The position numbers and the translations under genes were made by a program. A DNA stretch of 64,000 nt from Escherichia phage YX22, in sequence record OR776998. One strand, 5' to 3'. Shown piece after piece: positions 6,188 to 49,657 of the stretch; position 1 is the stretch's first letter, and each line of letters opens with the position of its first letter. A model generated the notes under the pieces. The model was not told the DNA's origin. It ran no database searches and was given only the letters and a program-made list of their open reading frames with translations.

Positions 6188-6214
6188 CGGGGTTTATTGA
6201 AGAATTAAACCCCG
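6188..6214. terminator. 9-bp stem-loop between genes
   Basis: CGGGGTTTA/TAAACCCCG. The T-rich tail is on the plus side only. Two TTCAAT boxes here have no -10 element. Confidence 0.3.
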
Positions 6215-6235
6215 TTTATTGAATAAATTTAAAAT

Positions 6236-6472
6236 TTATTTGAAGCGATCAGGAAGGGTGTCGTGAACCTCGGCGCTCAGCACCAGAAACTTACCATCCG
6301 TCGTTGGGAAGCAATAGTCTTTCTTGATGTGACGCAAGTGTTCAGCTACAGCTGCCACGCAGTCATCTGTCACGTCGGTCTTCTCACCAACCCACATGCT
6401 GGTTTTGGTGTTCAACCTGCCCTGGAATATAGTACCAGTGAGAGGACTTGCGCCGATCTTTTTGATAATCAT
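6236..6472 (-). CDS. hypothetical protein
   Basis: 78-aa ORF with a GAGG SD. Confidence 0.55.
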   Translation of the reverse strand: MIIKKIGASPLTGTIFQGRLNTKTSMWVGEKTDVTDDCVAAVAEHLRHIKKDYCFPTTDGKFLVLSAEVHDTLPDRFK

Positions 6473-9014: not shown

Positions 9015-9042
9015 AAATAAAAACCCCGCCGAAGCGGGGTTT
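9014..9042 (-). terminator. rho-independent terminator after the capsid gene
   Basis: AAACCCCGC-cgaa-GCGGGGTTT, followed on the minus strand by TTTTATTT. Confidence 0.7.
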
Positions 9043-23549: not shown

Positions 23550-26500
23550 TTATGCCAGAGCAATCAAACGGAAATCTTTGAATGACGGCGGTGCTATACG
23601 GTTGCCTCTGACCAGCAGGCGGATCTTCAGGCCAACGAAAGGATTGGTGCTGTCTACAGTCTTGTCATACTCATATTCGAAGAATGCAGAACCGTCATTG
23701 ACCAGAGGGGATGTCGGTGTCACAGTTTCCCATGCCACATTATCCATCTCCTGACCTGCGCGCAGCAGTTTAACCTGCACAGTCATTGAAGACTGAGAAG
23801 GTAGCATCGCGCCGAAGTATTGCTTCAGAGTGGTGCAAGGGTTATCGAATCCGATATCCTTGGTCACATAGCTGAACACATCTTCAAACGGATCCACACC
23901 GTAGGTGTTGAAGATGATAGTGAAATCATCACCGTCGATCATTGGAGCCGTGTAGACATTACTCTCGTTGCGAGTCATGGTTGCACGAACCTGGAAGTCG
24001 CCCACCTGACGATAGATACCTTCCGTCGGCAGAGACACGTCCGTATCGGATTCGAACTCAACCCAATCAGAGAATGAGTTGGAGGTCGCATCGCGATAGC
24101 GGTATTCCAGTTTCAACACAGATCCTTCCAGGGCTGAATTGGTGACGCTTGCGTAGAACATGTCTACCAAGTAGTTGCCTAGGAAAGAAGCCGCTTCACC
24201 ACCAATCTGACCGTCGGAGTCGGCGTTGGAACTCAGAACGAATTTGAACGTCGTGAACGTCGCATCAGTCACAGTGTGTTGAGCGTTCAGTTGCTCAGGA
24301 GTGAAACCGCAACCACCCGTCAGACCAGACAGAGTAACACTTTCGCCCGCAGTCAGGCCATGCCCCGGAGCGTACACAGTAACAGTTGAAGAACCATTGA
24401 CACATTTCACGGTGTTCAGACCCAGAGGGCGGATCTTCGGACCGACTTTAGCATCGAAGGTCACGATGTTTGAACCAGCGGAGAAGTTACAGCGATACAC
24501 ACGGAACTTCATATCGGCAGTCTGGTTTGGAGTCCAGGTCGTACCATTTGAAGATGTGAAGAACACGCCAGTGTACGGCTGTTTGGCAATGAACTCGTTG
24601 GTCAGCAAGTTCTTCTTGCCCATCTCTGCGATGTATGCGTTGTAGTCCTGAGTGTTGGCCAAGAGAACAATCGCGAACTCAGTCTGCGCCTGCAGATACA
24701 CAGGATAATCAAACTTGAACATCGTCGGCACAGAAGAGTCTGTGGAGACGGAAACTTCTGATGGATTCAAAGTCTTACGAGTGACGACAGTCGTCGCTGG
24801 CAGACCATTGCTCATCTCACGGATTTCCAAAGTGATTGGAATATCGCGAGACTTGGTAGAGAAGAACACTTCGATGCCTTCGATGTATTCGCCGCCGATA
24901 TTGGTGGCAACCATAAAGGACTGGGCGATAGGATCTTTCCACTTCGCGACTTCAACCGTCTCTGTTTTGTTTTCCGTAGACTTGGTCGCAGTGTATCCCA
25001 GGACGCGGGTGTTGACATAAGTCTTCTGGATGCCCTGTTTCTTACCGAAGGACTTATGAACAGCCTCAGCATTGGTCAGGGTATCATCAGCAGACTTGCT
25101 GTCCACAGGACTGTCAGTCAGACGGAAGACATTGTCACCCGTGTTAAACTTGATAGTCTCGTTCTGAGGAACCGCAAACACGCCTTTGATGTTGCCGTTG
25201 GCGTCAGTATTCAACGCACCACCCAGAGCGCCACCGTTTGGGGTACAGTACGCGCTCACATCACGCCCAGAGAAGAACGGATACACACGAGTGAACGGAC
25301 GCAGGCCTGTGGCTTCGAAGTTGATGTTCGTTTTGCGCATGTATGGGATTACCTGCGTTTCAACGATCTGCTCGCCAGTCAGGGTAGTGGTCGTCTTGTC
25401 GGTGTACGTGTACGTGGTGACGTCACGGGTAGACACAGTCGTGCGGTAGCGATAGCCCCACCATACACCACCTGCACCATGCGGTTCCCACACACGCTCA
25501 GACACGGACACAGTACGCCATGTGCCATACACAGAACCTTCTTTGATCGCACCACGGGTGTTGATCGTTTCGTTGATCACACGTGGAGTAACATAGTAGT
25601 TCTCAAACCAGTAATCAGTAGTTGGGTTCAGTTTCAGGAATCCTTCCCAGTTGAACACCGCATACGGGTTCACGTTGATGGTCGTGGTTGCATAGTCCTG
25701 GCGGACAGAGATCTCACGGGTGTAGTTGCATACAACCATGCCATCCTGAACGTTGTTCCAACCGACTGGCGTCAGGTCAATCGCGTTCTGCTGAACAAAC
25801 GGACGCAGACGACCATTATCAGTGTCGATTGAACCCACCCAGTCTGCAGACAAATCGTCGATCAGGCGGAAGTCTTTGAACGGGTCTGCTGCGATACCGT
25901 TCTTGAAGCGCGGGTTGCCAGTAATTGGATCGAACACCTGTTGTGACATCGCCGAGGATTCCAGCTGAGACAGTGAGGTGTAATATTCGACATTGGAGAT
26001 ACGGGTCTCCAGTTTACCGATATCGCGCATCGTGTAGCGGCGGTTGTCGATAGTACGAATCTGGATGTCGTCAATGTTGGCCGTGTAAGGCGGGATCATC
26101 AATTCATACAGGCGCATGCCGTTGTCTGGGATCGCAGGGGAAGCCAGGTTGTTGGAACTCACACCACGAGCAACGTTGAACACACCGTTGTCTGCCAGAT
26201 ACACAGCATCAATACGAGGCAGATAGTACTCTGCATCTAGGATGATCGCGGTGTTCGGGCGAACCATGTCCGTGTCAGACGCTCCGCTGGTGATCTTGGG
26301 ACGGAAGTCCAGACTGTCGGCCAACCCATACACAGTACCAGAACTGGATGAAACATAGTTCGGGATGTCTGGATAGTTGATGGACGAATAGGAGTCCGCT
26401 GTGAAGAAATCACCAGAGCTGTGAGCGAAATACTGATACACCACCGTGAACGTCCCTGAAATGGCTCCAGTGGACGATATGAGGTTAGAAAGGTAGTATG

Positions 26501-28388
26501 CCGCATCGCGTTGACCACCGTCCAGAGTGAAGTTAGAGGTGACGTCAGCGCCATTTGCGTTCTTCACGCTGATCAGCTTGTAACCATCATGGTTCCCAAG
26601 TTGTGCGCTGGCTGTCGCAGTAAACGTCACAGTCTCGGTGGCTTCGGTAACAGTCTTGGTCTTGATCGTCGCTGTGGTGCGGACCATCAATGCCAACAGG
26701 TTGATAGACTGGTTGGCGTACCCCGCGCCCAGGGAAATCTGCAGTGCTGAACCAACCGGAGTACCAGCCAGAGACAGTCCCGAAGAGATATCAAACTGAG
26801 CTGCAGTGCCATCTGCTTTCGCTGCGGAGTACAGTGAAAACTCAGGGCTGAAGCTGTAACCCAGAGGAGCAGAAATTGAGCCTGCACCAGCAGCGTTCAA
26901 CGTGATCTTGTTTGACCGCAGGACAGTGTAGTTGATGTCGATGGTGCCTGTAGGTGCTAGAGTCTTCACACCAAATACAGGCAGAGGGAAGATCAGGTCA
27001 ATTGCTGAACTCTGACTGAACTGATTGGACTCCAGTTCGCAGGAGAACATCGTTGTACCGCTTTCTTCATAAGCGACTTTGGTAACAGTACCCATGTCCC
27101 CAGTCACAACCAGGTCGCGCATATACAGACGGAATTCAGTACCAGAGCGCTCTGCCGAAATCAGCAGGGCGGTGGCCTGCACATCGCTGGATGCGTTCAG
27201 GAACTTGTAGCGGATTGTGCGGGAGACAACCGGAACCCCTTTGGAGTTCTTGGACACCAGATAGTTGCCAGTCGAAACAGCCACAGGGTTGTTGTTCAGG
27301 ATATCAGTGTCACGGGCTTTGTCAATTATGACCAGCTCTTCGCCGAGGTTTTCGATACGACGACCACGAACGTAGGAAATGCCTGGCTTCATAACCGCCA
27401 CGAATTTGCTTTCATCACCACCTTCAGCCGGAGTGTAAACGCCGCCGTTGTTGTTCTGTTTCAGATGTTCGCGCAGGTCGATCTGGTGAGTAGAGACGTT
27501 GTAGTCACCATTGGTCTCATAGGTACGCTGAGCCATGGCGTCTTCGAGGATGTTGTACGTTGACTGGGTGACCATGGACTGAACACGACCGTCTTTCACC
27601 TTCGCCAGTTCAACGAAGTCGGCCACTTCTTCATCATAACCGTAGCGAGACAACACGAGGTCGACGCGCAGGCGATGCGCACCAGGGGCTTTAGAGTTCG
27701 GAGTACCCTGAGCATTGGAGAACAGACTTTCATCTTCTGCTTCGGTCACGATTGTTTCTGTAACTTTGAAGCCAATGCGGTGAGATGTAGAGTTCGATGC
27801 GTTGTCTACGATCAGAGTGGCTGGTTCAACATCCAGGAACATACCACGAACGAAATAAACACCCTTTGTCATGCGAGCGACAATCGAACCGCCAACAGTA
27901 TCGGCCACACCATAGCCGACACGGATGAAGTTATCGTTCACGTCATAGGTGTTGAAATATAGATTGTCGCCAGCTTCGAAACCGTCTGAACTACCACTCT
28001 CAGTCATCTCTAAGATGGCATACATTGTATCTGGCTCAGCCGGATAACGTTCCAAGGACAGGACGCGTGCTTTCGCATTGTTGTCCTTGCCCAGAACATA
28101 GAGTTCGGAGATACCTTCCAGATCAGTGAACTCACTACCACCAGCCAGAGTGAACTTCATGGACACAGCAGTGTTGGTGATCGTTAGGCCGCCGGGGATA
28201 ACCATTGAACCGTCTTTGAACAGATGGTTGCCAAGTTTCTCCAGTTGATCCTGGAAGATGGTCTGCATCTGGTTCAGTTCACGCGTCTGAACTTTGATAG
28301 GTGCCGGACGGAATAGGATGCGCGAAAAACGCTTCTCTGGATTCCAGTCATCCCAATATGGGCGGCGGTTGAGGTTCATTTCTTGCAT
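23550..28388 (-). CDS. very large virion structural protein (baseplate/fibre-associated)
   Basis: 1612 aa from the ATG at 28388 (MQEMNLNRRPYW). The N-terminus RILFRPAPIKVQTRELNQMQTIFQDQLEKLG recalls DUF4815-type phage structural proteins, from memory. Confidence 0.6.
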   Translation of the reverse strand: MQEMNLNRRPYWDDWNPEKRFSRILFRPAPIKVQTRELNQMQTIFQDQLEKLGNHLFKDGSMVIPGGLTITNTAVSMKFTLAGGSEFTDLEGISELYVLGKDNNAKARVLSLERYPAEPDTMYAILEMTESGSSDGFEAGDNLYFNTYDVNDNFIRVGYGVADTVGGSIVARMTKGVYFVRGMFLDVEPATLIVDNASNSTSHRIGFKVTETIVTEAEDESLFSNAQGTPNSKAPGAHRLRVDLVLSRYGYDEEVADFVELAKVKDGRVQSMVTQSTYNILEDAMAQRTYETNGDYNVSTHQIDLREHLKQNNNGGVYTPAEGGDESKFVAVMKPGISYVRGRRIENLGEELVIIDKARDTDILNNNPVAVSTGNYLVSKNSKGVPVVSRTIRYKFLNASSDVQATALLISAERSGTEFRLYMRDLVVTGDMGTVTKVAYEESGTTMFSCELESNQFSQSSAIDLIFPLPVFGVKTLAPTGTIDINYTVLRSNKITLNAAGAGSISAPLGYSFSPEFSLYSAAKADGTAAQFDISSGLSLAGTPVGSALQISLGAGYANQSINLLALMVRTTATIKTKTVTEATETVTFTATASAQLGNHDGYKLISVKNANGADVTSNFTLDGGQRDAAYYLSNLISSTGAISGTFTVVYQYFAHSSGDFFTADSYSSINYPDIPNYVSSSSGTVYGLADSLDFRPKITSGASDTDMVRPNTAIILDAEYYLPRIDAVYLADNGVFNVARGVSSNNLASPAIPDNGMRLYELMIPPYTANIDDIQIRTIDNRRYTMRDIGKLETRISNVEYYTSLSQLESSAMSQQVFDPITGNPRFKNGIAADPFKDFRLIDDLSADWVGSIDTDNGRLRPFVQQNAIDLTPVGWNNVQDGMVVCNYTREISVRQDYATTTINVNPYAVFNWEGFLKLNPTTDYWFENYYVTPRVINETINTRGAIKEGSVYGTWRTVSVSERVWEPHGAGGVWWGYRYRTTVSTRDVTTYTYTDKTTTTLTGEQIVETQVIPYMRKTNINFEATGLRPFTRVYPFFSGRDVSAYCTPNGGALGGALNTDANGNIKGVFAVPQNETIKFNTGDNVFRLTDSPVDSKSADDTLTNAEAVHKSFGKKQGIQKTYVNTRVLGYTATKSTENKTETVEVAKWKDPIAQSFMVATNIGGEYIEGIEVFFSTKSRDIPITLEIREMSNGLPATTVVTRKTLNPSEVSVSTDSSVPTMFKFDYPVYLQAQTEFAIVLLANTQDYNAYIAEMGKKNLLTNEFIAKQPYTGVFFTSSNGTTWTPNQTADMKFRVYRCNFSAGSNIVTFDAKVGPKIRPLGLNTVKCVNGSSTVTVYAPGHGLTAGESVTLSGLTGGCGFTPEQLNAQHTVTDATFTTFKFVLSSNADSDGQIGGEAASFLGNYLVDMFYASVTNSALEGSVLKLEYRYRDATSNSFSDWVEFESDTDVSLPTEGIYRQVGDFQVRATMTRNESNVYTAPMIDGDDFTIIFNTYGVDPFEDVFSYVTKDIGFDNPCTTLKQYFGAMLPSQSSMTVQVKLLRAGQEMDNVAWETVTPTSPLVNDGSAFFEYEYDKTVDSTNPFVGLKIRLLVRGNRIAPPSFKDFRLIALA

Positions 28389-28422
28389 TTTGATGCTCCA
28401 TCGATAGGTGCCATTATAGAGA

Positions 28423-28429
28423 TATTTAG
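28423..28429 (-). promoter_or_regulatory. late-promoter-like core CTAAATAtc
   Basis: 35 nt upstream of the 28388 ATG. Confidence 0.5.
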
Positions 28430-28445
28430 TATACAACCAACCGAG

Positions 28446-28475
28446 GAATAGAAAGAAATAAGCCCGAAGGGGCTT
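28446..28475 (-). terminator. terminator upstream of the late promoter
   Basis: The minus strand forms AAGCCC-cttc-GGGCTT followed by ATTTCTTTCT. Confidence 0.5.
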
Positions 28476-28494
28476 TGATTATCTTTCTGTGGTT

Positions 28495-28626
28495 ATGGTC
28501 ATGGATTCGAGACCTCTGCCATTCATGGTAGATGGTATTCAATTAGGTATGTTTAATATATCAGGTCAGACTATTACCTTAACTGCTGTATCGATTAGGG
28601 TAATGCAAACAGTAAACTCTATATAA
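28495..28626 (+). pseudogene. truncated paralogue of small ORF 33385..33624
   Basis: 43 codons. The last 35 align codon for codon with the 33385 ORF. Confidence 0.4.
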
Positions 28627-28650
28627 AAAGTATTATTAATAAGTAAAAAC
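28522..28650. repeat. 129-bp intergenic repeat, copy A
   Basis: Near-identical to 33520-33648. Confidence 0.85.
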
Positions 28651-28677
28651 AACCCCATAGAAGTGGGGTTGTTTTTA
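28644..28677. terminator. bidirectional terminator
   Basis: AAAAAC-AACCCCA-tagaag-TGGGGTT-GTTTTT. Confidence 0.7.
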
Positions 28678-28689
28678 AGTGATTATTAC

Positions 28690-30603
28690 TTACATAACAA
28701 CTGCGGCAGATATGTATCCTGAATCTTGATACGATCCAGAAAGGTCAAAAACTTCTAAGTTAAAAGAGTCAGGGGATGTACTTACGGCATTAATTACTAA
28801 TTTCCCTCCGCTAGTGGTATTGCCAACACTGCATAAAACAGCATAAGCAGAGGAGGGCATAGTATTAGATAGGTTGACGGTATATTTACCGGTCCCGGTT
28901 TTAGTTACAGTTGCTCCATCCGCATACACTAACGACCCCGAAATTCCATTAAAATTGATCATTGCCCGTGTACATGCACTCGACCTTTTTGCGACGGTAG
29001 ACCCAATAAATGCGTATTCTTGGGCCTTGTTAATATAAATCTTATTAACAGAAGTGTCAGGTACTTGTAAGACGTTGTCTATAACAACATTACAGGCTGT
29101 TGCTCCAGATACGGTAGAGCATCTATCTATCTCATAATTGTCGATATTAATAGCCCTTACAAAACCTATACCCCCAAATGCTGACCAGTTTTGTTTAACA
29201 AGAACACCGGAAATACCGGACAGGAAAATAAGATCGCCTGTCGTATCTTTGCTAAACGTGTTGTTGGTTATTGAAACAGAAGAAGAACGCGGTGAGTGAC
29301 TATCATCTGCAACATATACCCTGGCTAAAGAAGAAGCAGTATTCTCTTCAAAGTAGTTACCATCTACCAGTAACTGCTGTGCACCCCCGGCGACAACACC
29401 TACGTCATAGCCCGTGTTTGCTTCAAATAGAGAGTCTCTGACTATGAAATTTCGTACACTACTTGCAGTACCTGAGTCTCCGATAAGAACACCGTTAACA
29501 CCATCAAAGAAAGTACAATTATCAACTTTAACTACGTTGATATCTACCTTTGACGTTTTTACACCATTTGCACATTTAGCGAAATAGCATGAAGTTAGTT
29601 CAGCTACTCCGGAAAAATAGTCTGGGCTATCGTAATGTAAATAGACCCCATATCGAGCGTTTCTGACAACGCAATCTTGAAGTTTTAAATACCAAGCCCC
29701 ACCGAAATCAAAGCCATCAGATGATGAATCCTGGATATCCAGAAAAAGTCCAGAAATCTTAGCTCCTATCGCACCACCTTGAACCCGAATGGCGGGTGAC
29801 GCTAACCCGGTAAACTTAATTACTGAACCTGTTGTTTGGTCATTAACATGTCCAAAACTATTACCAACAATACATAGACTATCAGTGGCAGTTATGATTA
29901 AAGTAGAGCTTATAAGATAAATACCATCCGGTATGTATAAACTCTTTTTCGAATCTATTGCTGCCTGAAACGCGGCGGTATCATCGGTCACACCGTCGCC
30001 AACAGCCCCGAAGTCCTTGACTGACACCAGGTCTTTATTTTTATCATATAGTGTTCGCTTAATGGAGTTGGCCAGAGGTGACTTAAATCCGACCAGACCA
30101 GCGCCATCATCAGATGCAAGATTGATTCTCAAGGCTGCATCACCAACACTAACCCATTTGCCTAACCCAGTACCACCAGCACTTTCAGGAGTTGAGCCAG
30201 AAGAAACGGTTTTAGGTAACTCGCCATCCCAGCGATACTTACCTGTTGTATGGGTAAGCAATTCATTTTTAACATTAAGTGTAGCACCAGTGTCAAACGA
30301 CCCAGGCAATGTAACGTATTCTTCACGGGATACGGCTAATTCCCCAAGATCTATGGAACCAGCTGAATGTACAAGTACAGCATTAGTACCAAGACTTACA
30401 GCAGTAGTTCCTGCCGGAAGTACAGGTAATGAGTAAGCTCGTTGAGTAGTCTTATCGTAAATGACCTTGTAACCACCTAAGTCTACACCTACAGCAAAGT
30501 AGACTACTTCATTCTGCTTAACACCAAACTTACGGGCAATGGCTTGCTTATTGGTAAGAATACCAGTGGAGCCTTTACCACCTTGGGAGAACATCTCGTT
30601 CAT
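28690..30603 (-). CDS. tailspike, pectate-lyase-type beta-helix depolymerase
   Basis: Shared N-terminal module, then DFGAVGDGVTDDTAAFQAAIDS, the typical start of a pectate_lyase_3 tailspike. A+T-rich. Confidence 0.75.
   Translation of the reverse strand: MNEMFSQGGKGSTGILTNKQAIARKFGVKQNEVVYFAVGVDLGGYKVIYDKTTQRAYSLPVLPAGTTAVSLGTNAVLVHSAGSIDLGELAVSREEYVTLPGSFDTGATLNVKNELLTHTTGKYRWDGELPKTVSSGSTPESAGGTGLGKWVSVGDAALRINLASDDGAGLVGFKSPLANSIKRTLYDKNKDLVSVKDFGAVGDGVTDDTAAFQAAIDSKKSLYIPDGIYLISSTLIITATDSLCIVGNSFGHVNDQTTGSVIKFTGLASPAIRVQGGAIGAKISGLFLDIQDSSSDGFDFGGAWYLKLQDCVVRNARYGVYLHYDSPDYFSGVAELTSCYFAKCANGVKTSKVDINVVKVDNCTFFDGVNGVLIGDSGTASSVRNFIVRDSLFEANTGYDVGVVAGGAQQLLVDGNYFEENTASSLARVYVADDSHSPRSSSVSITNNTFSKDTTGDLIFLSGISGVLVKQNWSAFGGIGFVRAINIDNYEIDRCSTVSGATACNVVIDNVLQVPDTSVNKIYINKAQEYAFIGSTVAKRSSACTRAMINFNGISGSLVYADGATVTKTGTGKYTVNLSNTMPSSAYAVLCSVGNTTSGGKLVINAVSTSPDSFNLEVFDLSGSYQDSGYISAAVVM
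30124..30603. repeat. ~480-bp shared RBP N-module, copy 1
   Basis: Encodes ..YKVIYDKTTQRAYSLP..VSREEYVTLPGSFDTGATLNVKNELLTH..KYRWDGELPKTV... Also similar at DNA level to the other copies. Confidence 0.8.
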
Positions 30604-30660
30604 AACAACCTCTTTGTTTTTCTAGTAAACCACCCCTTATGGGGGTGGGGGAGTAGTTGA

Positions 30661-33324
30661 TTAGCTTAATGGTTTTACTTCCCATCGCTTGTCATAGTAA
30701 TGTGCAAAACCACAGTAGGATACAGACAGATGAACGATTGCATTTACTAGGCTTGCTGTAGGTAATGCAATTCTGACAAATGTTTTACCGTCACGTACCA
30801 GTTTAGTTACTGTTACCCCGGAAAGAGATTTATCACCAGCAATCATATTAGACCAGACTGCACCAGAGGCTACATTTTCCTGTGTGCTACCGGATAGCCC
30901 AAACAGAATACTGCCCCCTGATTCAGTACCAGCCAAACCATTTTTGTTAACTGGAATGATATCTGCACGCCCAGCAACGAAGCAACCATCTGGGATTTTA
31001 GTCTCTTCCCCTACAGCACAGAGAAATATATCCAAAGCCCTGTTCCATGGAACCAGTACAGTAGCTTCCTTGTGGTCAACACTCCGGAAGAACGAACTGC
31101 TATTAGAGTGAATTGCCGACAAAGTAGTGCCTGTATATGAGTTACGACCCTGTACAATATCTTCTCCATATACCCTGCCCCGGTAAAGGTTACCACGGTT
31201 ATATGTAGATATTGTGTAGGAACCATCGCTAACTTTTAAAAATTCAAAATTACTATTTAATGTAACACTACGCCCAATATACTGGTTACTTGGAGAAGTG
31301 GTATTCTCCATCAATTTGATAGCATAGTCAGAGTTAACGTAACCACTGTCAAAGATAATCCTACCAGCCTGGTACTCATTAGTAGGTAACTCAATAAAAT
31401 GAGTTACACCAGTATTCATTTTAGACTGAATCCAACAAGAAACATCTCTGAATACGATTGTTGTTTGTGCAGCAGGGGAAGCTAACTGTGAGAAGTCTAA
31501 TGCCACTGGCCCATTTATCCCTTCAATACCGAAGCCAGAGAATGAGAGGCTACGAATATCTCCATAAAATTTATGAGGTAAAATGCAACCATCTGCTGCA
31601 ATGTTGCTAGTAGCAACATACATGACAGGCAATCCATTACTGACTGGCTCATATGTAGTACGGTTAATGGCAGCTCCCCATAAAAAACCAATGTCACAAT
31701 GGTGTGCCCAAATAGATGACATATCCGTACTAGTGCTTCCATTGATACCAAAACCATAGGTACAGTCATATGCATACAAATTGGTCATAACACTAACAAA
31801 GCAAGCCATAGGCAAAGCGAACTTATAGTGGTAAAAGTCCACATCATGCACATTAAATGTCTTACCGCCACCACCTATGCCATTGCTTAAATCGAATGAA
31901 CTAATAACAAGAGGACTACCTACGTAATCAGAATCAGCATTTCGGAAAGAGAGGCGACCAATAGTAATATTGTGTCCCCATCTGGTAGAGATGAATCCAC
32001 CCTTACCTGATGTATAAATAATACTTTGTCTCTGACCAAGACCCGTAATGGATAGAGATCTGCCAGTCCAACGCTGATTGCTAATATCAATCTGTGTATC
32101 ACCAATATACATTGGTTGGGTAATTTTGATATTCAACCCATTAGCTACAGCATATGAATAGGTTGCTAACAAAGCATCCCCATCATTGTGCACACCAGTC
32201 AGGTCAGCAGCCCCCATACTTGGTGCTTTAGGATACGGACCGCCCTGAATGGTGCTGCCGTCGATATATGGGGCGTCCATCCACGCACCAAACATAGATG
32301 GGGTAACTTCGGTGCTACCACGTAAATCACGTACCCAACGTTTGCCGGATGCAGTAACAATAGTCATACCATTATCATCTGCTGATGTAACAGATGGTTT
32401 ATATACAAAATACCCGCCACCTAAATCACCGGCATTGGTTGCAATCATACCGTCAGTATGGGCTTCTACGTAAATACGTTGTTCAGCATAGGTAGGCTCA
32501 ATTGTTCGCAGTACTGCAATATTGGGGCATGTACCAATCAGCTTACTACCATCAGGCTTGCTCAGGTCTTCTCTGAGACTAGCACCAGAATTTGGGACTT
32601 CCATCAAATCTACGGTAATGTTACCTGGACTGTAGGTTAACTGACCATTAGACACAGAACTAATATAGACATTGGTCGGTAATGAAGGCAGGCCATAAAT
32701 TTTCTGAGCAGCTGCATCGAAGATAACTTTCTTGTTATCGAGTACTTGAGATGTATCCGTATTAAGAATTACCTCAGAATCTTTTACATTAGCTGAACGA
32801 GCGATTTCTTGAATACTTCGGTCAAACAACGGACTGATATTCGGTTGTTTAACAGACATTTCAGCGACTACCCAAACGCCTGCAGTCAGCGCAGTTTGTA
32901 AAGACACTTTCCCTGTCGTGCTGTCATAGGAATATTCAATTTCTGGTGTTTTGTACTCACCACCGATATAAAGAGATTGGACTCCATAAGATGTGTAATC
33001 AGGAGTGAACTCGGTTTCACCTCCTATAGCCTGAAACTTATAGATTCGAATCCCGGTTTTATAATCTTCTGGAGACAGAATCTTATCAAACAGACAGAAC
33101 ACAACGTCACCTTTGGATAATGCACACCCGAGATTCAACGTATTTCCATCGATTTCAAAGTTGTCTAACGGAACTTGCATACCACCGTTGATTGTGACTA
33201 TACCCGTGACAGGGTAGAAAGGGAGGGAGATAAACTTCTCTCCGCCCGTTGCTGTGTAAGTGTATGGAATCTGGTGCGGAGCTGTTACGACCGCTCCAAA
33301 GATGCTCTCGACGTTTCTGGTCAT
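30661..33324 (-). CDS. tailspike/receptor-binding protein with N-terminal docking domains
   Basis: 887 aa from the ATG at 33324 (MTRNVESIF). Ig-like N-terminal repeats, a weak copy of the shared module, and a large C-terminal domain. A+T-rich. Confidence 0.6.
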   Translation of the reverse strand: MTRNVESIFGAVVTAPHQIPYTYTATGGEKFISLPFYPVTGIVTINGGMQVPLDNFEIDGNTLNLGCALSKGDVVFCLFDKILSPEDYKTGIRIYKFQAIGGETEFTPDYTSYGVQSLYIGGEYKTPEIEYSYDSTTGKVSLQTALTAGVWVVAEMSVKQPNISPLFDRSIQEIARSANVKDSEVILNTDTSQVLDNKKVIFDAAAQKIYGLPSLPTNVYISSVSNGQLTYSPGNITVDLMEVPNSGASLREDLSKPDGSKLIGTCPNIAVLRTIEPTYAEQRIYVEAHTDGMIATNAGDLGGGYFVYKPSVTSADDNGMTIVTASGKRWVRDLRGSTEVTPSMFGAWMDAPYIDGSTIQGGPYPKAPSMGAADLTGVHNDGDALLATYSYAVANGLNIKITQPMYIGDTQIDISNQRWTGRSLSITGLGQRQSIIYTSGKGGFISTRWGHNITIGRLSFRNADSDYVGSPLVISSFDLSNGIGGGGKTFNVHDVDFYHYKFALPMACFVSVMTNLYAYDCTYGFGINGSTSTDMSSIWAHHCDIGFLWGAAINRTTYEPVSNGLPVMYVATSNIAADGCILPHKFYGDIRSLSFSGFGIEGINGPVALDFSQLASPAAQTTIVFRDVSCWIQSKMNTGVTHFIELPTNEYQAGRIIFDSGYVNSDYAIKLMENTTSPSNQYIGRSVTLNSNFEFLKVSDGSYTISTYNRGNLYRGRVYGEDIVQGRNSYTGTTLSAIHSNSSSFFRSVDHKEATVLVPWNRALDIFLCAVGEETKIPDGCFVAGRADIIPVNKNGLAGTESGGSILFGLSGSTQENVASGAVWSNMIAGDKSLSGVTVTKLVRDGKTFVRIALPTASLVNAIVHLSVSYCGFAHYYDKRWEVKPLS

Positions 33325-33330
33325 TTGAAG

Positions 33331-33404
33331 ATACCCCATAGAGGATTTGCCAATATGGGGTATTTAGTCTGAACTAATAAATTTATGAACAAAGGTATAA
33401 CAAG
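33331..33404. repeat. ~74-bp promoter/leader repeat, copy A
   Basis: Matches 36708-36780 with a 1-nt indel. It includes the late motif and the first 20 nt of the small plus-strand ORF. Confidence 0.8.
33361..33367 (-). promoter_or_regulatory. late-promoter-like core CTAAATAcccc
   Basis: Forms a 10-bp inverted repeat (33331-40 with 33354-63) that spans the promoter and the RBS. Confidence 0.55.
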
Positions 33405-33624
33405 GAGAACCAATGGAACTACAATAGTAGGTTCAGATGCCAGTACCAAAGTTCAGGGTGTAGATATAGCCAACAGGGATAACGTTTTAGCTACTTACAC
33501 ACTAGGTTCAGCAGACCCTTTCATGGTGGATGGTATACAGTTAGGTATGTTCAACATATCAGGTCAGACTATTACCTTAACTGCTGTATCAGTAAGGGTA
33601 ATGCAAACAGTAAACTCTATATAA
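33385..33624 (+). CDS. small conserved protein antisense to the tailspike operon
   Basis: 79 aa. Against the partial copy at 28522-28626, 7 codons differ and 6 of those are synonymous third-position changes in this frame. Confidence 0.6.
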   Translation: MNKGITRRTNGTTIVGSDASTKVQGVDIANRDNVLATYTLGSADPFMVDGIQLGMFNISGQTITLTAVSVRVMQTVNSI

Positions 33625-33648
33625 AAAGTATTATTAATAAGTAAAAAC
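33520..33648. repeat. 129-bp intergenic repeat, copy B
   Basis: Near-identical to 28522-28650. Confidence 0.85.
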
Positions 33649-33676
33649 TAACCCCGCCGAAGCGGGGTTTTGTTTA
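33643..33676. terminator. bidirectional terminator
   Basis: AACCCCGC-cgaa-GCGGGGTT with A- and T-tracts on either side. Confidence 0.7.
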
Positions 33677-36600
33677 TTACTTCTGTTCAAGAGCAGAAAG
33701 TCTGGCTTCGATTCTTTCCAGTTTTCTTCGCTGATAAGCAGCTTCAGCAAAGAAAATTCCGTCAGGCCGCACGCCCCACTCCTCACCCTCTTCGTGAATA
33801 ACCACCTCAGTGAATACAGGCTCTTCCGTGGTGGTGACATTACCCTCCTCGTCAGTGTGTTCAACGATTTCATTGTGCGAAAATACCATATCGGTCATCC
33901 GTGGATACTTGTCATAGCACAGAACGGCATAACGACAATCCGTACTGTTTTCGTCCATCAGACCATGTGCAATGAATACATCACGAATTTGCTGAGCAAT
34001 AACCCCGAAGTGAATACGAGCTTCATTGCCTTTCAGTTGAACAGCATCTAACCACTGGTACATGATGTAGTGAACGTCACCCCAGGCATCCAGGAAAGCA
34101 TCATCAAAAACTACCGGCTCCGTTTTCTTCTCTCCGTTAGAAGTAACAATAGGGTTGCTTCCGAGGTATGCAGTGGTGAAACGGTTGCTGGGCCCACCAA
34201 GAGCAATAGCGTTATCGTTATAAGGCTTAACATCAGCAGTCTGGAACAGGTGCTCAGCTCCGTTGTAAACTATCCTGCGAGAAGCTGTGTTATTCGCACC
34301 GTAAAGCGTAATCTGTGCACCAGTAGAAGAACTGGTTCCTTCTCCACCGCAAAATATGGTGCGCTGTCCTGCTGGGTTATTAGTAGGTACAGATTTCCCA
34401 ATAAACCCATACTCGCCTTCCAGTAGCATTTCAGAGCGAATGTTATTACTGGTGCTGGCCCTAAGGGTCACATGACCTAAACCCAAATCTCCTGTAAATT
34501 CCATTGGCGCAGGGACAGTGCGAACCCCATTCGTATCAAAAAACACGGGAACAGCTCTGTCAGGTACAGCACCATATCTGAAATCCCTGGAAACACGATT
34601 GTCTGGGCCAATCTTCATTTTGTAGCAATACAAATCTGAGGGATGACCATCTGATTTGAATGGGTCTTTCGCTGAGTTATCTCCATATGTCCAGGGGTTC
34701 AGATGGTCTTCCCCACCGAACATGTAATAGATATAACTATCCTTAACAACCACTGAGCCAACACCGACTCCAGAGTTGACAATACCGCCCTGATAAATCT
34801 GGTCAGTGATATTCACCCACTGAGTATTATCCAGGTTCCAGGTGTCTAGGTTCACTCGCGTGTAGAACGTTCGTGGATAAGAAGTAAAGTATCGTTGATC
34901 AGGTACATTGGCTTCCCATTCGTTATCAGCACGCTCTGTGGCGAAAATGATTAGTTCATTACCGACTTTAGCGAACGGCAACGTAGAGTGGTGAACATTA
35001 TTAGGAAATCTGAGTGATTCCCAAGTCATGCCCAAATCATGACTACGATGCAACGAACTCCCCAAACGATCTGAACGAGTACCACGAGTTAAGACATAAA
35101 GAACGCCATCAAAATATTTAACGCAAGGCTCTGCCGCATCAGGTTCATAATCAGCAGGAATACGACGTTTTTGGTATAAACCCGGGTTATTAAACGCATC
35201 CGGGAAATACAACATGCCAACTTCACGAGGAGCAACATCACCTTGGTGATACCCCATCATGAATGAATCATTATTGATGGCGGTAAAACTATGAACTTCA
35301 GTCACCATTGGGATTAACCCAAGGCTGGTTTTACGCCACGGCGACTCATGGAACGATGTACCCATATGCCAACGGCTGGTAGAATTATTTTGGTCAAACG
35401 CCTGTTGATTTGGCGTGGTAACTGTGAAAGTGTTGCGGTCAATAACTGAAGTTACAGTCATATTCCCTGAAACTCCAGTCACCCCAGAGTTTGAGAAGTT
35501 AACAAAATCCCCAGCAAAAAGACCGTGTTCAGGGATAGTAATTACAGCCACAGGCTGGTTGGCGGCTTTAGTGATACCGCCTGTCGGATGGTAGTTACGG
35601 GACATGGGGCGATCCCACAACTCACAGGTTACCAGTGCGTTAGATGCCAATGTACGGGTCTCAATCATCGCAAAGAGACGATTACGCATCACCCCCATAC
35701 TCATGCAGTGGTAGTTAACTGTCGGATAGTCAGGATGTAGGTCGGTTAACCACTCCGGGGTTGTCCAGGTCTGTCCGTCATCCCCTGAACGAACCCAGGA
35801 TACATGCAGCCTGCTAACCCCATGTCTATCACTAGCCATGAACGGACAGTAAATAACATCGTCGTAAACGAACGCTTTATCTTGTGGCCACGCATTGTAA
35901 TAAGGGGTGTCCGTTATTTTGAACAGCTCGCCCTGAACAAATTCTTCAGAGGCATAATAAAGCGGCTGACCAGGAATACGCTCATAAACAAAACGAGTGT
36001 TGACGAATCGACTAATGTCAGGCAAGGATGTGACCTTATATGTCTTCCCATTGCCATTAATTTTCTGACCAACTGGTGCGGCGTTTAATACGCCATTAAG
36101 CGCTGAGGTGTCATCGGTGACCCCATCACCTTTTGCATTCCACCCGCGCGGGTCGAATGTGTCTCTCCATCTTGCGATCTGCAAATCTGGATATTTTGTT
36201 GCGCCATCAGGGTCAGAAAGCTGGCTTCTTAATGAAGCATCACCAACACTAACCCATGCACCAGTTCCAGTGCCACCAGTACTCCCAGGAGTTGAACCAG
36301 CTGGAACTGTTTTAGGGAATTCACCCTCCCAACGATACTTACCCGCTACATGAGTAAGGAGTTCATTTTTAACATTAAGTGTAGCACCAGTATCAAACGA
36401 CCCAGGTAAAGTCACATATTCTTCGCGACTTACGGCTAACTCCCCAAGGTCTACAGAACCAGCCGAATGAGCGAGGATTGCCTGTTCGTTCAGACTAACA
36501 GCAGTCGTTCCTGAAACAATACCTGAAGGAAGAGAATAAGCCCGTTGGGTAGACTCATCATAAATTACTTTAAATCCACTGAGATCAATACCAGCAGTGA

Positions 36601-36703
36601 AATAAACGACTTCGTCTTCTTTGACACCGAAATTTCGAGCGATAGATTGTTTGTTAACTTCTATGGAAGTGGAGCCGCGTGGTTGATTGAATTGAGAAAT
36701 CAT
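33677..36703 (-). CDS. endosialidase tailspike (endo-N-acylneuraminidase) with C-terminal intramolecular chaperone
   Basis: Long stretches match K1F endoNF as I remember it: HGVSRLHVSW..SGDDGQTW, GTRSDRLGSSLHRS, YLGSNPIVTSNGEKKTEPVVFDDAFLDAWGDVHYIMYQWLDAVQLKG, ..RKLERIEARLSALEQK. Confidence 0.9.
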   Translation of the reverse strand: MISQFNQPRGSTSIEVNKQSIARNFGVKEDEVVYFTAGIDLSGFKVIYDESTQRAYSLPSGIVSGTTAVSLNEQAILAHSAGSVDLGELAVSREEYVTLPGSFDTGATLNVKNELLTHVAGKYRWEGEFPKTVPAGSTPGSTGGTGTGAWVSVGDASLRSQLSDPDGATKYPDLQIARWRDTFDPRGWNAKGDGVTDDTSALNGVLNAAPVGQKINGNGKTYKVTSLPDISRFVNTRFVYERIPGQPLYYASEEFVQGELFKITDTPYYNAWPQDKAFVYDDVIYCPFMASDRHGVSRLHVSWVRSGDDGQTWTTPEWLTDLHPDYPTVNYHCMSMGVMRNRLFAMIETRTLASNALVTCELWDRPMSRNYHPTGGITKAANQPVAVITIPEHGLFAGDFVNFSNSGVTGVSGNMTVTSVIDRNTFTVTTPNQQAFDQNNSTSRWHMGTSFHESPWRKTSLGLIPMVTEVHSFTAINNDSFMMGYHQGDVAPREVGMLYFPDAFNNPGLYQKRRIPADYEPDAAEPCVKYFDGVLYVLTRGTRSDRLGSSLHRSHDLGMTWESLRFPNNVHHSTLPFAKVGNELIIFATERADNEWEANVPDQRYFTSYPRTFYTRVNLDTWNLDNTQWVNITDQIYQGGIVNSGVGVGSVVVKDSYIYYMFGGEDHLNPWTYGDNSAKDPFKSDGHPSDLYCYKMKIGPDNRVSRDFRYGAVPDRAVPVFFDTNGVRTVPAPMEFTGDLGLGHVTLRASTSNNIRSEMLLEGEYGFIGKSVPTNNPAGQRTIFCGGEGTSSSTGAQITLYGANNTASRRIVYNGAEHLFQTADVKPYNDNAIALGGPSNRFTTAYLGSNPIVTSNGEKKTEPVVFDDAFLDAWGDVHYIMYQWLDAVQLKGNEARIHFGVIAQQIRDVFIAHGLMDENSTDCRYAVLCYDKYPRMTDMVFSHNEIVEHTDEEGNVTTTEEPVFTEVVIHEEGEEWGVRPDGIFFAEAAYQRRKLERIEARLSALEQK
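36224..36703. repeat. shared RBP N-module, copy 2
   Basis: Same module as 30124-30603. Confidence 0.8.
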
Positions 36704-36707
36704 GATA

Positions 36708-36780
36708 ATACCCCATAAAGGATGACCAATATGGGGTATTTAGGCTGAACTAATAAATTTATGAACAAAGGTATAACAAG
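36708..36780. repeat. promoter/leader repeat, copy B
   Basis: Matches 33331-33404. Only the first 20 nt of the small plus-strand ORF survive here. Confidence 0.8.
36737..36743 (-). promoter_or_regulatory. late-promoter-like core CTAAATAcccc
   Basis: Forms an 11-bp inverted repeat (36707-17 with 36730-40). Confidence 0.55.
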
Positions 36781-36801
36781 AACCCTGCCGAAGAGGGGGT
36801 T
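36781..36801 (-). terminator. degenerate stem-loop after the 993-aa gene
   Basis: AACCC...GGGTT, at the position where the other cassettes have terminators. Confidence 0.35.
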
Positions 36802-36805
36802 AGTT

Positions 36806-39787
36806 TTACGGGTAAGCACTCTCGAACTTACAGAACCAAGTCGTTCCTCCATCAGTTGTTGACAACCTAAAAACTTGTGTTCCAGCTGCTGTCAAAGATG
36901 GGGTACTACTTGCTAATATAACATTTGCACCAAATGTTATTGTTTTAGATGTTGTTGAATAGACAGCCAAAAGAACCTCAACATAACCAATTAGTGTATT
37001 TGTTAATACTGCTGGAGTTATTGTTACATCTCCTGTAACTGTAGCTGCGATGTAAGATGCGTCTGAAAAGTCAGGCGCATAACTTGCTGTTGGCGTCTCG
37101 AACTTTGGATTTCTTACCAATACAGGAACTCCAACATTTTTCCTGAAAATTGTACTATTGCAAACCATATCATACTCTATACCAACAAAATTCTTAGCTG
37201 CGAGTATGTTAGTAAATGTCTGGTCCGCAGAGTAAATATGAGTTATCAGCCTTGCCACCCATGCTGGTGAGTTTGAGTTTTCACACTCAATGAATGAGCA
37301 GTTGGTACTACCAACAGCGAATGGCATTAATGATGCCGTATATGAAGATAGCCCTGCGTCATTGAATGCATTCATATTCACAAAAGTCTGGCATTGAGAG
37401 AACGTATTACCGGTGGCTCCACCATCAATAAAAAAGCCAATCCCGCCGTTAATATAACCATCTACAGGATCTAAATTAGCTTTCGTGTAGTCCCATTTTG
37501 ATGGAGAATCTGCAAAACATTGATTGAAGGAATTGTTTATTGAGTTCTGTACAACAAAGCAGCATTTCATCCTTGAGTTCTGGTCAGTGACTGTATCGTC
37601 ATACATGCCCCAGTTGTGCACCTTACCAATTCTGTTATTACCACCACCACGAACCCAGGTACCAAATCGGAAATAACGACCTTCACCCATGCTAACCTGA
37701 TGATCGCTACCTTCAACAATGTGGGCTGTGCTGAGCGGATTAGTTGGTTTTAATACACCAACAGCATAAAACTTCAATAGGTGCACACCCATACCGCCAG
37801 CAATATGGATGCCATGACCATCAACGTTGGCTACGTAAATGCCTTCTAACTTGTTAGCATAGCCATCGGATATCTTAAACCCATTAACAGTTTTTGCACG
37901 GGCATCAATTAATAAGTTGCTGATATGCCCAGCGTATTGATTACCCGTCCCTTTATCGCATTTAACAGCATAGCCAGAGGAGTCTGCAACGAAGTCATCG
38001 GTGAGGTACACCCCACCGAAACCAGCATCAATGCTAACATCTCCGTGAATGTGTAGTGTCGTACTGATAGGATATTTCTTCCCATTCAGCCTGATAACTT
38101 TGCTTACAGTGTTAGGTTGTAGCCAGTCAGGATGGTTAGCAGCACTACTTGGTGCATGTTCTAAACCTGTTAAAGCTGCCGCAGCATCAATCGCATCCTG
38201 TAATGATGGATACATATCCGGGTTGACATTTATAATTTTCTTAAGCGCATTGCCAACAGTACCAGTTTCGTAATCAATTGACTTATCAAAACCTGAAAAA
38301 CCTGCTCCTGTAGGTTTAGCCAATTCTGACTTCAATGAAGCATCACCAACACTAATCCATGCGCCAACACCAACGCCGCCTGTTGTCATAAGAGTTGAGC
38401 CAGGAGCAACGGTTTTAGGAAGTGTACCATCCCAACGATACTTTCCATCAGTATGGGTGAGTAATTCATTTTTAACATTGATGACAGCACCAGAATCAAA
38501 TGTCCCAGACAATGTAACATATTCTTCACGAGATACAGCCAATTCCCCGAGATCTACAGAACCCGCTGAATGCACAAGTACAGCGGAAGAACTAAGACTG
38601 ACAGCAGTAGTACCAGGGACAATATCAGCAGGCAAGGGATAAGCCCTTTGCGTCTCCTTGTCATAAATAACTTTATACCCACTTAACGCAGCACCAACAC
38701 TAAAATAAACGACCTCTGTATCTTTAACATTGGTTACACGAGCAACTTCCCGCAAAGTATAATCAATTTGATTATAGATGTTTGGTGTTCCATTGATAAT
38801 TACAACAACTTCATCCTCTGGTTCCAGTTCTTGCGCAAGAGTGATTTTACTGGTTAATGGATCGAATGTGAATCCCAGATTTTTATACTGGCGACTTCCG
38901 TTTATATCAATGGCCGGAACATCATCAACAACGACGTCCAACGTGATTTCGGTTTCACCGCCAATCGCTGAACCCCCATTATAGACCCAGGTAATCGTAG
39001 AAGAACTAGAACCACCGCCATTACCCAATTGAATAGGAGTATATTCAATCACCTGAAGTTCTGTGTTGGCTGGCAAAGAAGGGCTGAAAGTGATTACATT
39101 CCCATCTAGTGAATATTTGGATTCCGCAAGACGTTTTCCGTCAGCATACACGTCCACGATTGTTGGTGGGGTATTGAGAGCGACAGTACTTGTTTCAGAC
39201 GCCAAAATTTTTGTAAAGATTTCACGACTGTAGACGCGACCTTGGCCAAGACCGACGCCGGATGTAATAATCCAACCTTGTTCAGGTCCAGACCAAGTGA
39301 ACGTTGCTGATACGTTATCAGTTGTTATAGCCATGTCTTCAGTGGAGCCATACAAATTATTTCCAGAAGGAGACACAGTCAATGGGTAAGTGGCAAATTT
39401 CCCATAAGCATCACAAATAGTAACGGAATCCCCAATACGCGTAGGGGAAGGGAGAACCACTGTAGATGCCCCTGTGGTATTATTAATGAGATAGCCTCGC
39501 CCTTCAGTGAGCGTTGCCGTAGAGGCATGCGGAAGGACTTCCCAGCGGATACCACCGCCACCCAGCGGCAACCATCCACCATTTTCATAGAAGCCCTCAA
39601 ATTCGTCGGAGTCGGCATTGTAGCGAACGGAAGACGGGAGTCCTGCGCTGGCATTACCCTCGGGTAAAGTCAGGACAGCATCTGGTCCATGCTCAATCGT
39701 ACCCGTGTTGAGGAGACCAGCCAAAGTAGACTGCTCTTCAGCCGCCAGACCGAGAGGGAAAACAGGCTGTGTTGGTTTATTAGCCAT
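36806..39787 (-). CDS. tailspike/branching receptor-binding protein
   Basis: 993 aa from the ATG at 39787 (MANKPTQP). Fibre-type N-terminus (VRYNADSDEFEGFYENGGW), Ig-like repeats, an internal copy of the shared module, and a C-terminal enzyme-like domain. Confidence 0.7.
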   Translation of the reverse strand: MANKPTQPVFPLGLAAEEQSTLAGLLNTGTIEHGPDAVLTLPEGNASAGLPSSVRYNADSDEFEGFYENGGWLPLGGGGIRWEVLPHASTATLTEGRGYLINNTTGASTVVLPSPTRIGDSVTICDAYGKFATYPLTVSPSGNNLYGSTEDMAITTDNVSATFTWSGPEQGWIITSGVGLGQGRVYSREIFTKILASETSTVALNTPPTIVDVYADGKRLAESKYSLDGNVITFSPSLPANTELQVIEYTPIQLGNGGGSSSSTITWVYNGGSAIGGETEITLDVVVDDVPAIDINGSRQYKNLGFTFDPLTSKITLAQELEPEDEVVVIINGTPNIYNQIDYTLREVARVTNVKDTEVVYFSVGAALSGYKVIYDKETQRAYPLPADIVPGTTAVSLSSSAVLVHSAGSVDLGELAVSREEYVTLSGTFDSGAVINVKNELLTHTDGKYRWDGTLPKTVAPGSTLMTTGGVGVGAWISVGDASLKSELAKPTGAGFSGFDKSIDYETGTVGNALKKIINVNPDMYPSLQDAIDAAAALTGLEHAPSSAANHPDWLQPNTVSKVIRLNGKKYPISTTLHIHGDVSIDAGFGGVYLTDDFVADSSGYAVKCDKGTGNQYAGHISNLLIDARAKTVNGFKISDGYANKLEGIYVANVDGHGIHIAGGMGVHLLKFYAVGVLKPTNPLSTAHIVEGSDHQVSMGEGRYFRFGTWVRGGGNNRIGKVHNWGMYDDTVTDQNSRMKCCFVVQNSINNSFNQCFADSPSKWDYTKANLDPVDGYINGGIGFFIDGGATGNTFSQCQTFVNMNAFNDAGLSSYTASLMPFAVGSTNCSFIECENSNSPAWVARLITHIYSADQTFTNILAAKNFVGIEYDMVCNSTIFRKNVGVPVLVRNPKFETPTASYAPDFSDASYIAATVTGDVTITPAVLTNTLIGYVEVLLAVYSTTSKTITFGANVILASSTPSLTAAGTQVFRLSTTDGGTTWFCKFESAYP
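38327..38755. repeat. shared RBP module, copy 3 (internal)
   Basis: Residues ~355-497 of the ORF: ..YKVIYDKETQRAYPLP..VSREEYVTLSGTFDSGAVINVKNELLTH..KYRWDGTLPKTV.. Confidence 0.8.
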
Positions 39788-39824
39788 TTCAAATACCCCT
39801 AAATGTGTTCGTTTCATCTAGGGG

Positions 39825-49617: not shown

Positions 49618-49624
49618 CTAAATA
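49618..49624 (+). promoter_or_regulatory. late-promoter-like core CTAAATAccccc (plus strand)
   Basis: 34 nt upstream of the 49658 ATG. It is the only plus-strand member. Confidence 0.5.
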
Positions 49625-49657
49625 CCCCCATATGGCTAACCCACTGAGGAACCCAAC

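Follow-up and report, generated by a model that had tools for sequence, protein, structure and literature searches.

Tailspike cluster and the 79-codon reading frame

We analyzed a 64,000-nt stretch of the genome of Escherichia phage YX22 (sequence record OR776998), hereafter the window, and focused on a 79-codon plus-strand open reading frame (ORF) at 33385-33624. From the sequence, this ORF had been proposed as a small gene antisense to the tailspike operon, with a diverged partial copy nearby. Sequence comparison identifies the region as the tailspike (TSP) cluster of a phage of the Ackermannviridae (Aglimvirinae/Agtrevirus-like), and every large gene in it lies on the minus strand. A megablast search with 33000-34000 matched 254 phage records, mostly Salmonella and Escherichia Ackermannviridae, with vB_CECAV_050 (99.3%) and AV101 (98.3%) as the best matches. 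The ORF and its surroundings comprise the following features:

30661-33339, minus strand: tailspike gene
33350-33404, minus strand: 55-nt leader upstream of the tailspike gene; contains CTAAATACCCC (33357-33367, minus strand) and supplies ATG 33385
33385-33624, plus strand: chimeric ORF of 79 codons; codons 1-5 (MNKGI) from the leader, codons 6-79 from a Schitoviridae gene fragment
33399-33624, plus strand: copy A, probable pseudogene remnant; nt 402-627 (residues 135-208) of a phrog_17779 gene (Bp4 orf14/B2 gp46 family)
33625-33649, plus strand: donor 3' untranslated region (3'UTR) AAAAGTATTATTAATAAGTAAAAAC, probably co-transferred
33650-33669, both strands: bidirectional intrinsic terminator, common to the remnant and the endosialidase tailspike; apparent crossover point
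33677-36703, minus strand: K1F-type endosialidase tailspike gene (1008 aa), whose 3' end abuts copy A
28519-28626, plus strand: copy B, last 35 codons and stop of the donor gene (nt 520-627)

The 79-codon ORF is indeed present from ATG to TAA. Since it falls wholly inside the 337-nt intergenic linker 33340-33676, between the tailspike genes 30661-33339 and 33677-36703, it is not antisense to coding sequence. Two other parts of its description hold: no purine-rich Shine-Dalgarno (SD) sequence precedes the ATG, and the frame ends at a bidirectional terminator, the hairpin AACCCCGCCGAAGCGGGGTT (33650-33669) scoring as a terminator on both strands.

Homology to a gene family of N4-like podophages

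Residues 6-78 of the ORF match PHROG 17779 (phrog_17779) at profile positions 136-207 of 208 (E=3e-36), and 65 phage records were matched by the 79-aa protein in a tblastn search. Among the matches listed, the strongest (72-93% identity over residues 6-79) are to annotated genes of ~208-217 aa in N4-like podophages, namely Bp4 orf14, pSb-1, nithesis, the UE-S5/UE-M phages, PD38, and TR2; B2 gp46 and its homologues in other Salmonella and Aeromonas phages are 53-61% identical to the 79-aa protein. The comparison with the C-terminal 74 residues of Schitoviridae phrog_17779 proteins (Bp4 orf14 AHN83361, B2 gp46, the UE-S5b "tail needle knob", and the TR2 "protease") gave 89-93% identity for ORF residues 6-79, and that with the metagenomic members P0032-P0040 gave ~99%. 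By profile and by tblastn identity, the ORF thus belongs to this family, whereas no Pfam family was found for either the ORF or the parent protein.

In the N4-like podophages (Schitoviridae: Gamaleyavirus, Triduovirus, and Ithacavirus), the ~208-aa parent gene is convergent to the tailspike gene and shares its terminator; in Gamaleyavirus, the two genes lie on opposite strands and the common terminator is bidirectional. The window sequence keeps this arrangement, convergent with a tailspike gene across a common bidirectional terminator and with the same 3'UTR. With the full-length parent as query, a protein search returned 39 clusters; most have 201-225 aa, and their contigs do not exceed ~75 kb. 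All full-length parent genes found lie on Schitoviridae records or on contigs within that size. A mini-protein family, suggested by the short forms that were all the 79-aa query had returned, was undone by the predominance of 201-225-aa members with the full-length query. A related-locus search of IMG/VR with the parent protein gave a single locus, in the pSb-1 genome.

The AlphaFold2 model of P0030, a full-length member 92% identical to Bp4 orf14 (predicted local distance difference test score, pLDDT, 78.4), has a short N-terminal module followed by one beta-jelly-roll at residues ~55-205. In addition, the N-terminal 45 residues of the family, in B2 gp46, are 49% identical (E=1e-14) to gp45, a solved capsid decoration protein of phage B2 (PMC11654681). 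The parent gene combines an N-terminal 45-aa module paralogous to B2 gp45 with a TNF/C1q-like jelly-roll knob; from the model and the likeness to gp45, its product is plausibly a trimeric knobbed head fibre or decoration-type protein. In Shigella phage B2 (contig L015), gp45 (3213-3512) and gp46 (3590-4225) are neighbours, and the likeness of the first 45 residues suggests that gp46 may be a second, knob-bearing decoration or head-fibre protein; PMC11654681 does not treat it among the virion proteins of B2. The parent gene is frameshifted in VTCCBPA_322 (L027 1073-1725, two annotated coding sequences) and carries a nonsense codon at residue 30 in contig L018 (507-1133). Its disruption in some Gamaleyaviruses indicates that it is dispensable and decaying in its home family too.

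The window holds only the last third of this gene, in an Ackermannviridae genome. The full-length architecture (~45-aa Dec-like module plus complete jelly-roll, ~200-225 aa) is absent, and a tblastn search of the full parent protein over the window found nothing beyond gene nt 402-627 (copy A) and 520-627 (copy B). Missing are the Dec-like module, the first half of the jelly-roll, the promoter, and the native start with its upstream region (divergent from a gp63-like gene), in place of which the left flank is the tailspike leader in copy A and the VrlC linker in copy B. The ORF covers about the last five of the eleven strands predicted for the parent in the AlphaFold2 model, that is, about half of the jelly-roll domain.

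Origin of the start codon

The 55-nt leader 33350-33404 recurs with 98.2% identity in the third linker, where two further features lie:

36726-36780, minus strand: second leader copy, repeat of 33350-33404; terminator 36781-36801 follows directly, with no remnant between
36806-39817, minus strand: tailspike gene

The first 20 nt of the ORF do match 36761-36780, as the original prediction had noted, but this match is the end of the leader repeat and not a decayed ORF. Among the Ackermannviridae matches listed, homology to the tailspike start and leader ends at 33368-33404, most often at 33404, and homology to the podophage gene begins at 33399; hence, ATG 33385 and codons 2-5 are leader sequence. 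The left junction of copy A carries a 6-nt microhomology, AACAAG (33399-33404). The 79-codon ORF is a chimera of an Ackermannviridae leader and a Schitoviridae gene fragment.

The leader motif CTAAATACCCC is presumably the late-promoter motif of ViI-like phages. With at most 1 mismatch, the window contains 8 occurrences of it (0.55 expected): seven on the minus strand (1838, 5035, 33357, 36733, 39168, 39821, and 47285) and one on the plus strand (49618). Those at 33357, 36733, and 39821 closely precede the starts of tailspike genes, and none lies in the linker that hosts copy B (linker B) or in the 57-nt linker 30604-30660. The motif is listed as a regulatory motif in a paper on Ackermannviridae genomes (PMC7283392).

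An intact frame that has an ATG and ends at a terminator would suit a genuine small gene, kept by purifying selection on its protein. The surroundings of the ATG argue otherwise. Besides the missing SD, the sole plus-strand CTAAATACCCC (49618-49628) is far from the ORF; a sigma-70 promoter scan, uninformative in that it gave fewer matches than shuffled sequence, had its single plus-strand match (33397-33425) inside the ORF; and the ATG belongs to a conserved leader that also occurs without the ORF after it. Among the megablast matches listed, no other record of the phage collection has a copy at the 33340-33676 linker.

Codon-periodic differences between the two copies

The second copy had been placed at 28495-28626. 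A 43-codon ATG ORF does exist there, but its homology to copy A is limited to the last 35 codons and the stop (28519-28626), from where it runs on through 24 nt of 3'UTR to 28650 (129 nt in all, 93.8%). Over the 35 shared codons, 8 differ rather than the 7 first counted, although the reported third-position synonymous pattern stands: 7 codons carry a single third-position synonymous change, and the remaining one, GTA/ATT (Val/Ile), differs at positions 1 and 3. Codon position 3 accordingly holds 8 of the 9 differing bases. With p=0.00097 for at least 8 of 9 differences on one given codon position, this three-base periodicity is not a chance result. Coding on the minus strand was ruled out, as all three minus frames carry stops across the ORF, and the periodicity therefore belongs to the plus frame.

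The same pattern bears on a further alternative, in which the conserved element would serve the tailspike operon as a regulatory element or a non-coding RNA. Its conservation between linkers and its intergenic location, flanked by a terminator and a promoter-like motif, are what such an element might show. However, neither strict three-base periodicity nor homology to a 208-aa protein family is expected of an RNA element, and this one is absent from the third linker and from most Ackermannviridae. A search of Rfam over 28300-36900 gave a best match of E~0.6, far below the gathering score. We give this explanation almost no credence.

Truncated and damaged copies in related phages

The linker between VrlC and the tailspike gene of related Ackermannviridae hosts the same remnant, cut at differing points:

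Start at gene nt 352: LHE287, RPN242, A221, PC3, SKML-39, and two metagenomic contigs
Start at gene nt 371: fGh-Ecl02
Start at gene nt 520: CAU_YEP3 and copy B of the window
Last 46 nt only, at another linker: AV101
Starts at gene nt 354, 369, 423, and 525: truncated Gamaleyavirus versions

The linker position of copy B is orthologous to that of the copies in CAU_YEP3, RPN242, SKML-39, and others. The 5' truncation starts form a nested series (gene nt 352, 354, 369, 371, 402, 423, 520, 525, and 582), of which 352 is the earliest in any Ackermannviridae copy examined. The deletion to nt 520 in copy B and CAU_YEP3 looks like one between ATTC repeats of a longer, 352-type remnant. In LHE287 (L003, ~5768-5937) and in the metagenomic Ackermannviridae contig L019 (~3744-3911), the VrlC leader is separated from the GACCTCCGCATTCT junction ahead of the remnant by an extra segment of ~170 nt, perhaps a further captured fragment.

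Several copies are also damaged. We found 1-nt deletions in RPN242/A221/PC3, LHE287, SKML-39, fGh-Ecl02, and ECBP1. SKML-39 has an 11-nt deletion as well, fGh-Ecl02 carries a TGA in frame, and LHE287 has lost its stop codon. Across copies, the family frame can be read as ORFs of 0 to 105 aa with unrelated N-termini, and the homologous copies share no conserved start, SD, or product length. Gene callers predict such remnants as hypothetical proteins of 44-101 aa, which would fit a small gene; on the other side, sister copies are frameshifted, stopped, or reduced to 35 or 16 codons.

We hold it to be highly probable that the 79-codon frame is no gene of this phage but a hitch-hiked pseudogene remnant and recombination scar beside horizontally acquired tailspike genes, its 79-aa product presumably neither expressed nor functional. 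The proposal of a small gene of this phage does not survive the origin of its ATG in an unrelated promoter leader and the frameshifts, stops, and variable truncations of the sister copies.

Source of the selection signal

Several observations weigh against the pseudogene reading. The 74 captured codons of copy A are free of frameshifts and stops and, given the ATG, translation of the ORF is conceivable. The ratio of nonsynonymous to synonymous differences per site (pN/pS; Nei-Gojobori counts over the last 74 codons) is 0.16 in full-length genes and similarly low in the truncated copies of Gamaleyavirus (0.18) and Ackermannviridae (0.10); pseudogenes would be expected to show omega~1, so that the value of 0.10, taken alone, favours a small gene. 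In several internally deleted Gamaleyavirus genes, the native GTG/ATG start is kept and fused to the last 66-85 codons, and these in-frame deletions would leave room for a functional C-terminal mini-protein in some phages. No donor with the parent gene directly beside an endosialidase was found. Finally, the ratio of nonsynonymous to synonymous changes (N:S) among singletons of the truncated copies, 32:31, is below a rough neutral ratio of ~3:1, a value that was estimated and not computed.

The singleton ratio also exceeds the overall pairwise ratio of ~0.25-0.3:1, as might be expected under relaxed constraint after capture. This is a weak test, and the comparison with full-length genes (7:5) is non-discriminating (Fisher p=0.76). 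The internally deleted forms (P0005 with 17 member sequences, P0003, and P0012; Gamaleyavirus contigs L016 4001-4291, L020 4001-4285, and L017 4001-4222) could be expressed mini-proteins or mere bias from searching called ORFs.

As the original prediction had advised, the ratio of nonsynonymous to synonymous divergence (dN/dS) was computed over the homologues, and it is low in all copies. However, the synonymous divergence (dS) of the fragment does not follow that of the genome around it. Among phages whose flanking VrlC genes differ by a dS of 0.003-0.083, the fragment dS is 0.39-1.05, that is, 10-30 times higher; the exception is the near-identical trio RPN242/A221/PC3 (fragment dS 0-0.04). 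CAU_YEP3 shows the reverse, with a VrlC dS of ~1.0 and a fragment dS of 0.3-0.9. In a neighbor-joining tree, Ackermannviridae and Gamaleyavirus copies interleave, and a podophage copy is the nearest or near-nearest neighbour of each Ackermannviridae copy. In addition, at 8 of the 9 sites that differ between copies A and B, both alleles occur among the 8 Schitoviridae genes of full-length extent that we compared (7 intact genes and that of L018 with its nonsense codon).

The decoupling of dS from the backbone, the interleaved tree, and the alleles held in common with full-length genes imply that the variation was imported and not generated in place. Backbone dS, tree, and allele sharing give no ground for attributing purifying selection to evolution in the resident genome. 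The claim of selection on the plus frame is thus correct in that the frame was shaped by protein-level selection, but this selection acted on the ~208-aa Schitoviridae gene and not on a 79-aa gene here. Import from functional genes fully explains the low dN/dS and, with the points raised above on the start, the sister copies, and the half jelly-roll, makes a genuine small gene very improbable in our estimate from these sequences. More generally, codon-periodic, synonymous-only divergence between two copies is no proof of selection in their current place, as it can be inherited from functional donors via recombination.

Probable acquisition of copies A and B with tailspike cassettes

Copy B stands in linker B with the following neighbours:

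23550-28436, minus strand: VrlC; ATG 28388 is the true start by homologue alignment
28460-28475: resident hairpin terminator upstream of VrlC
28627-28677: donor 3'UTR and bidirectional terminator (28644-28677) of the copy-B cassette
28690-30603, minus strand: tailspike gene (637 aa), colinear, with copy B and its terminator, with Gamaleyavirus-like contigs

All homologues of the VrlC-like gene use the start that corresponds to ATG 28388 (MQEMNLNRRPY...), 16 codons downstream of TTG 28436, where the mechanically called ORF begins; the real linker B is accordingly 28389-28689.

The stretch 28519-30629, comprising the remnant, the 3'UTR, the terminator, the entire tailspike gene, and 26 nt upstream of that gene, is colinear with 4115-6249 of the Gamaleyavirus-like contig L017 (71.9 kb; 89.6% over 2135 nt) and also with L018 (86.9% over 2132 nt). 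The left edge of the L017 homology is the exact start of copy B. On L031, the 3' end of an intact 208-aa gene aligns with copy A at 98.2% identity (225 nt); the alignment of copy A with L029 extends into the 3'UTR and across the terminator, at 96.1% over 285 nt. The endosialidase gene 33677-36703 is 91.2% identical (nt, over 2427 nt) to that of Gamaleyavirus UE-S5a/b and 82% identical to K1F gene 17; from this K1F type, the phage probably targets the E. coli K1 capsule. Contig L017 holds relatives of both this endosialidase and the tailspike 28690-30603.

Copies A and B had been treated as diverged paralogues. Their mutual identity of 91.4% is lower than that of each to a donor-type gene (98.2% for A with L031, 95.2% for B with L018), which contradicts this view. 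Duplication or gene conversion in this genome, with the differences accumulated afterwards, would account for the identity of the two copies over 33556-33590 and across the stop and 3'UTR (33595-33648), where some intragenomic conversion of the 3' part is possible. Against it stand the closer relative that each copy has elsewhere, the orthologous position of copy B in other phages, and the presence of both alleles in donor genes at 8 of the 9 differing sites. We consider an origin of the two copies by duplication or conversion unlikely.

Under the pseudogene reading, this myophage would have received tailspike cassettes from Schitoviridae podophages, one crossover lying in the conserved N-terminal part of the tailspike; N-terminal homology of tailspikes across these phages is known (PMC10408124, PMC11414711). 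The other recombination endpoint would have fallen in or just beyond the neighbour gene or the terminator, dragging along the 3' end of that gene, its 3'UTR, and the terminator. Copy B may have arrived, or been refreshed, en bloc with the tailspike 28690-30603. For copy A, the donor allele would have been another one; the common terminator hairpin would connect this copy to the endosialidase cassette, and the 6-nt microhomology would connect it to the resident promoter leader, which by chance supplied an in-frame ATG and so gave rise to the 79-codon ORF. A captured 3' end may later decay by deletion and frameshift and be overwritten periodically by new cassettes, and the synonymous-only differences between A and B would then be standing polymorphism of the functional donor gene pool. 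Given that Schitoviridae alone yielded the full-length gene, the remnants speak for transfer from podophage to myophage, and the direction from Schitoviridae to Ackermannviridae is probable.

Terminators and module junctions

The donor 3'UTR AAAAGTATTATTAATAAGTAAAAAC also occurs at 28627-28650 and in pSb-1, UE-S5b, LHE287, AV101, and L029, and the hairpin 33650-33669 is common to pSb-1, UE-S5b, LHE287, AV101, and IME207. Homology of the pSb-1/L029 type stops at about 33670-33682, and homology of the endosialidase type starts at 33644 (IME207) or 33666, from which it follows that the two modules overlap on the terminator hairpin. In linker B, two hairpin terminators (28460-28475 and 28644-28677) flank the remnant, consistent with one resident terminator and one imported with the cassette.

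These junctions raise the question of whether the remnant, without any protein function, is kept as a DNA-level portable homology arm that serves, with the terminator, for tailspike cassette swaps. Module junctions coincide with the terminator, two 3' haplotypes (terminator types) each occur in both families, and gene nt ~370-420 are nearly invariant across all copies. In addition, copy B has the left junction and deletion of CAU_YEP3 and a 3' half of the copy-A/L018 type, a mixed affinity that suggests crossing over within the 108-nt remnant. In PMC10408124, a conserved terminator motif that follows receptor-binding protein (RBP) genes has been proposed as a recombination hotspot in Gamaleya- and Kutterviruses. 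However, recent acquisition and slow decay explain retention simply, some remnants are down to 35 or 16 codons and the third linker has none, at no obvious cost, and breakpoints mapped from difference positions inside the fragment are beyond resolution in such short, similar sequences. Retention for this purpose is in our view doubtful, although a role of the remnant as an additional homology arm for tailspike cassettes today is plausible but unproven.

A related and tentative idea, which we rate as possible without favouring it, is that what was cut off from the knob gene, namely its 3' end along with the 3'UTR and the terminator, forms a portable cassette boundary for repeated shuttling of tailspikes between Schitoviridae and Ackermannviridae that co-infect E. 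coli, e.g., K1 strains. If so, the boundary would give a built-in arrow for the direction of each transfer, the full-length gene having been found only in Schitoviridae.

Relation to known systems

Gene remnants at mosaic boundaries are familiar in phage genomes: an acquired module is bordered by part of a donor gene, truncated and lacking a promoter, with microhomology at the joint. The window remnant is a new instance of this known kind of feature and not a new gene. Unlike such remnants in general, the same one occurs here at two linkers and across two phage families, and it gives tailspike exchange a polarity. Modular tailspike exchange and a conserved downstream terminator motif have already been published: in PMC10408124 (Virol J 2023), "motif three" is a terminator of 20 nt that follows RBP genes in Gamaleya-, Kutter-, and Justusliebigvirus. 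By its position, directly downstream of a tailspike gene and at the junction of modules of different origin, the window hairpin may correspond to motif three. In contrast to the non-coding motif three, the conserved sequence in the window extends 108-226 nt further, into the 3' end of the donor neighbour gene. A term search in PMC10408124, PMC10791037, and PMC11414711 found no description of this gene remnant.

The Sf6 tail needle knob (PDB 3rwn) and other TNF/C1q-like trimeric knobs (PRD1 P5 and BclA) are more distant, with 5-15% sequence identity. Unlike the Sf6 knob, the parent has another N-terminal module (B2 gp45-like, 49% over 45 aa), and the window fragment is only part of the fold.

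Such remnants are a cautionary case for ORF calling and annotation. They also provide physical evidence that N4-like podophages and Vi1-like myophages pass tailspike cassettes across the family boundary complete with neighbour gene end, terminator, and tailspike, and they suggest both the direction of transfer (podophage to myophage) and the crossover sites, namely the terminator hairpin and the conserved stretch of the remnant. This may be of use in understanding and engineering the host range of multi-tailspike phages.

Two minor observations concern the terminator and the donor locus. An exact 21-nt copy of the terminator AACCCCGCCGAAGCGGGGTTT (33650-33670) stands at 9022-9042, well away from the tailspike cluster. 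Contigs L030 (5636-5845) and L031 (1147-1356) carry a 69-aa plus-strand ORF with no Pfam match, placed between the parent gene and the tailspike gene.

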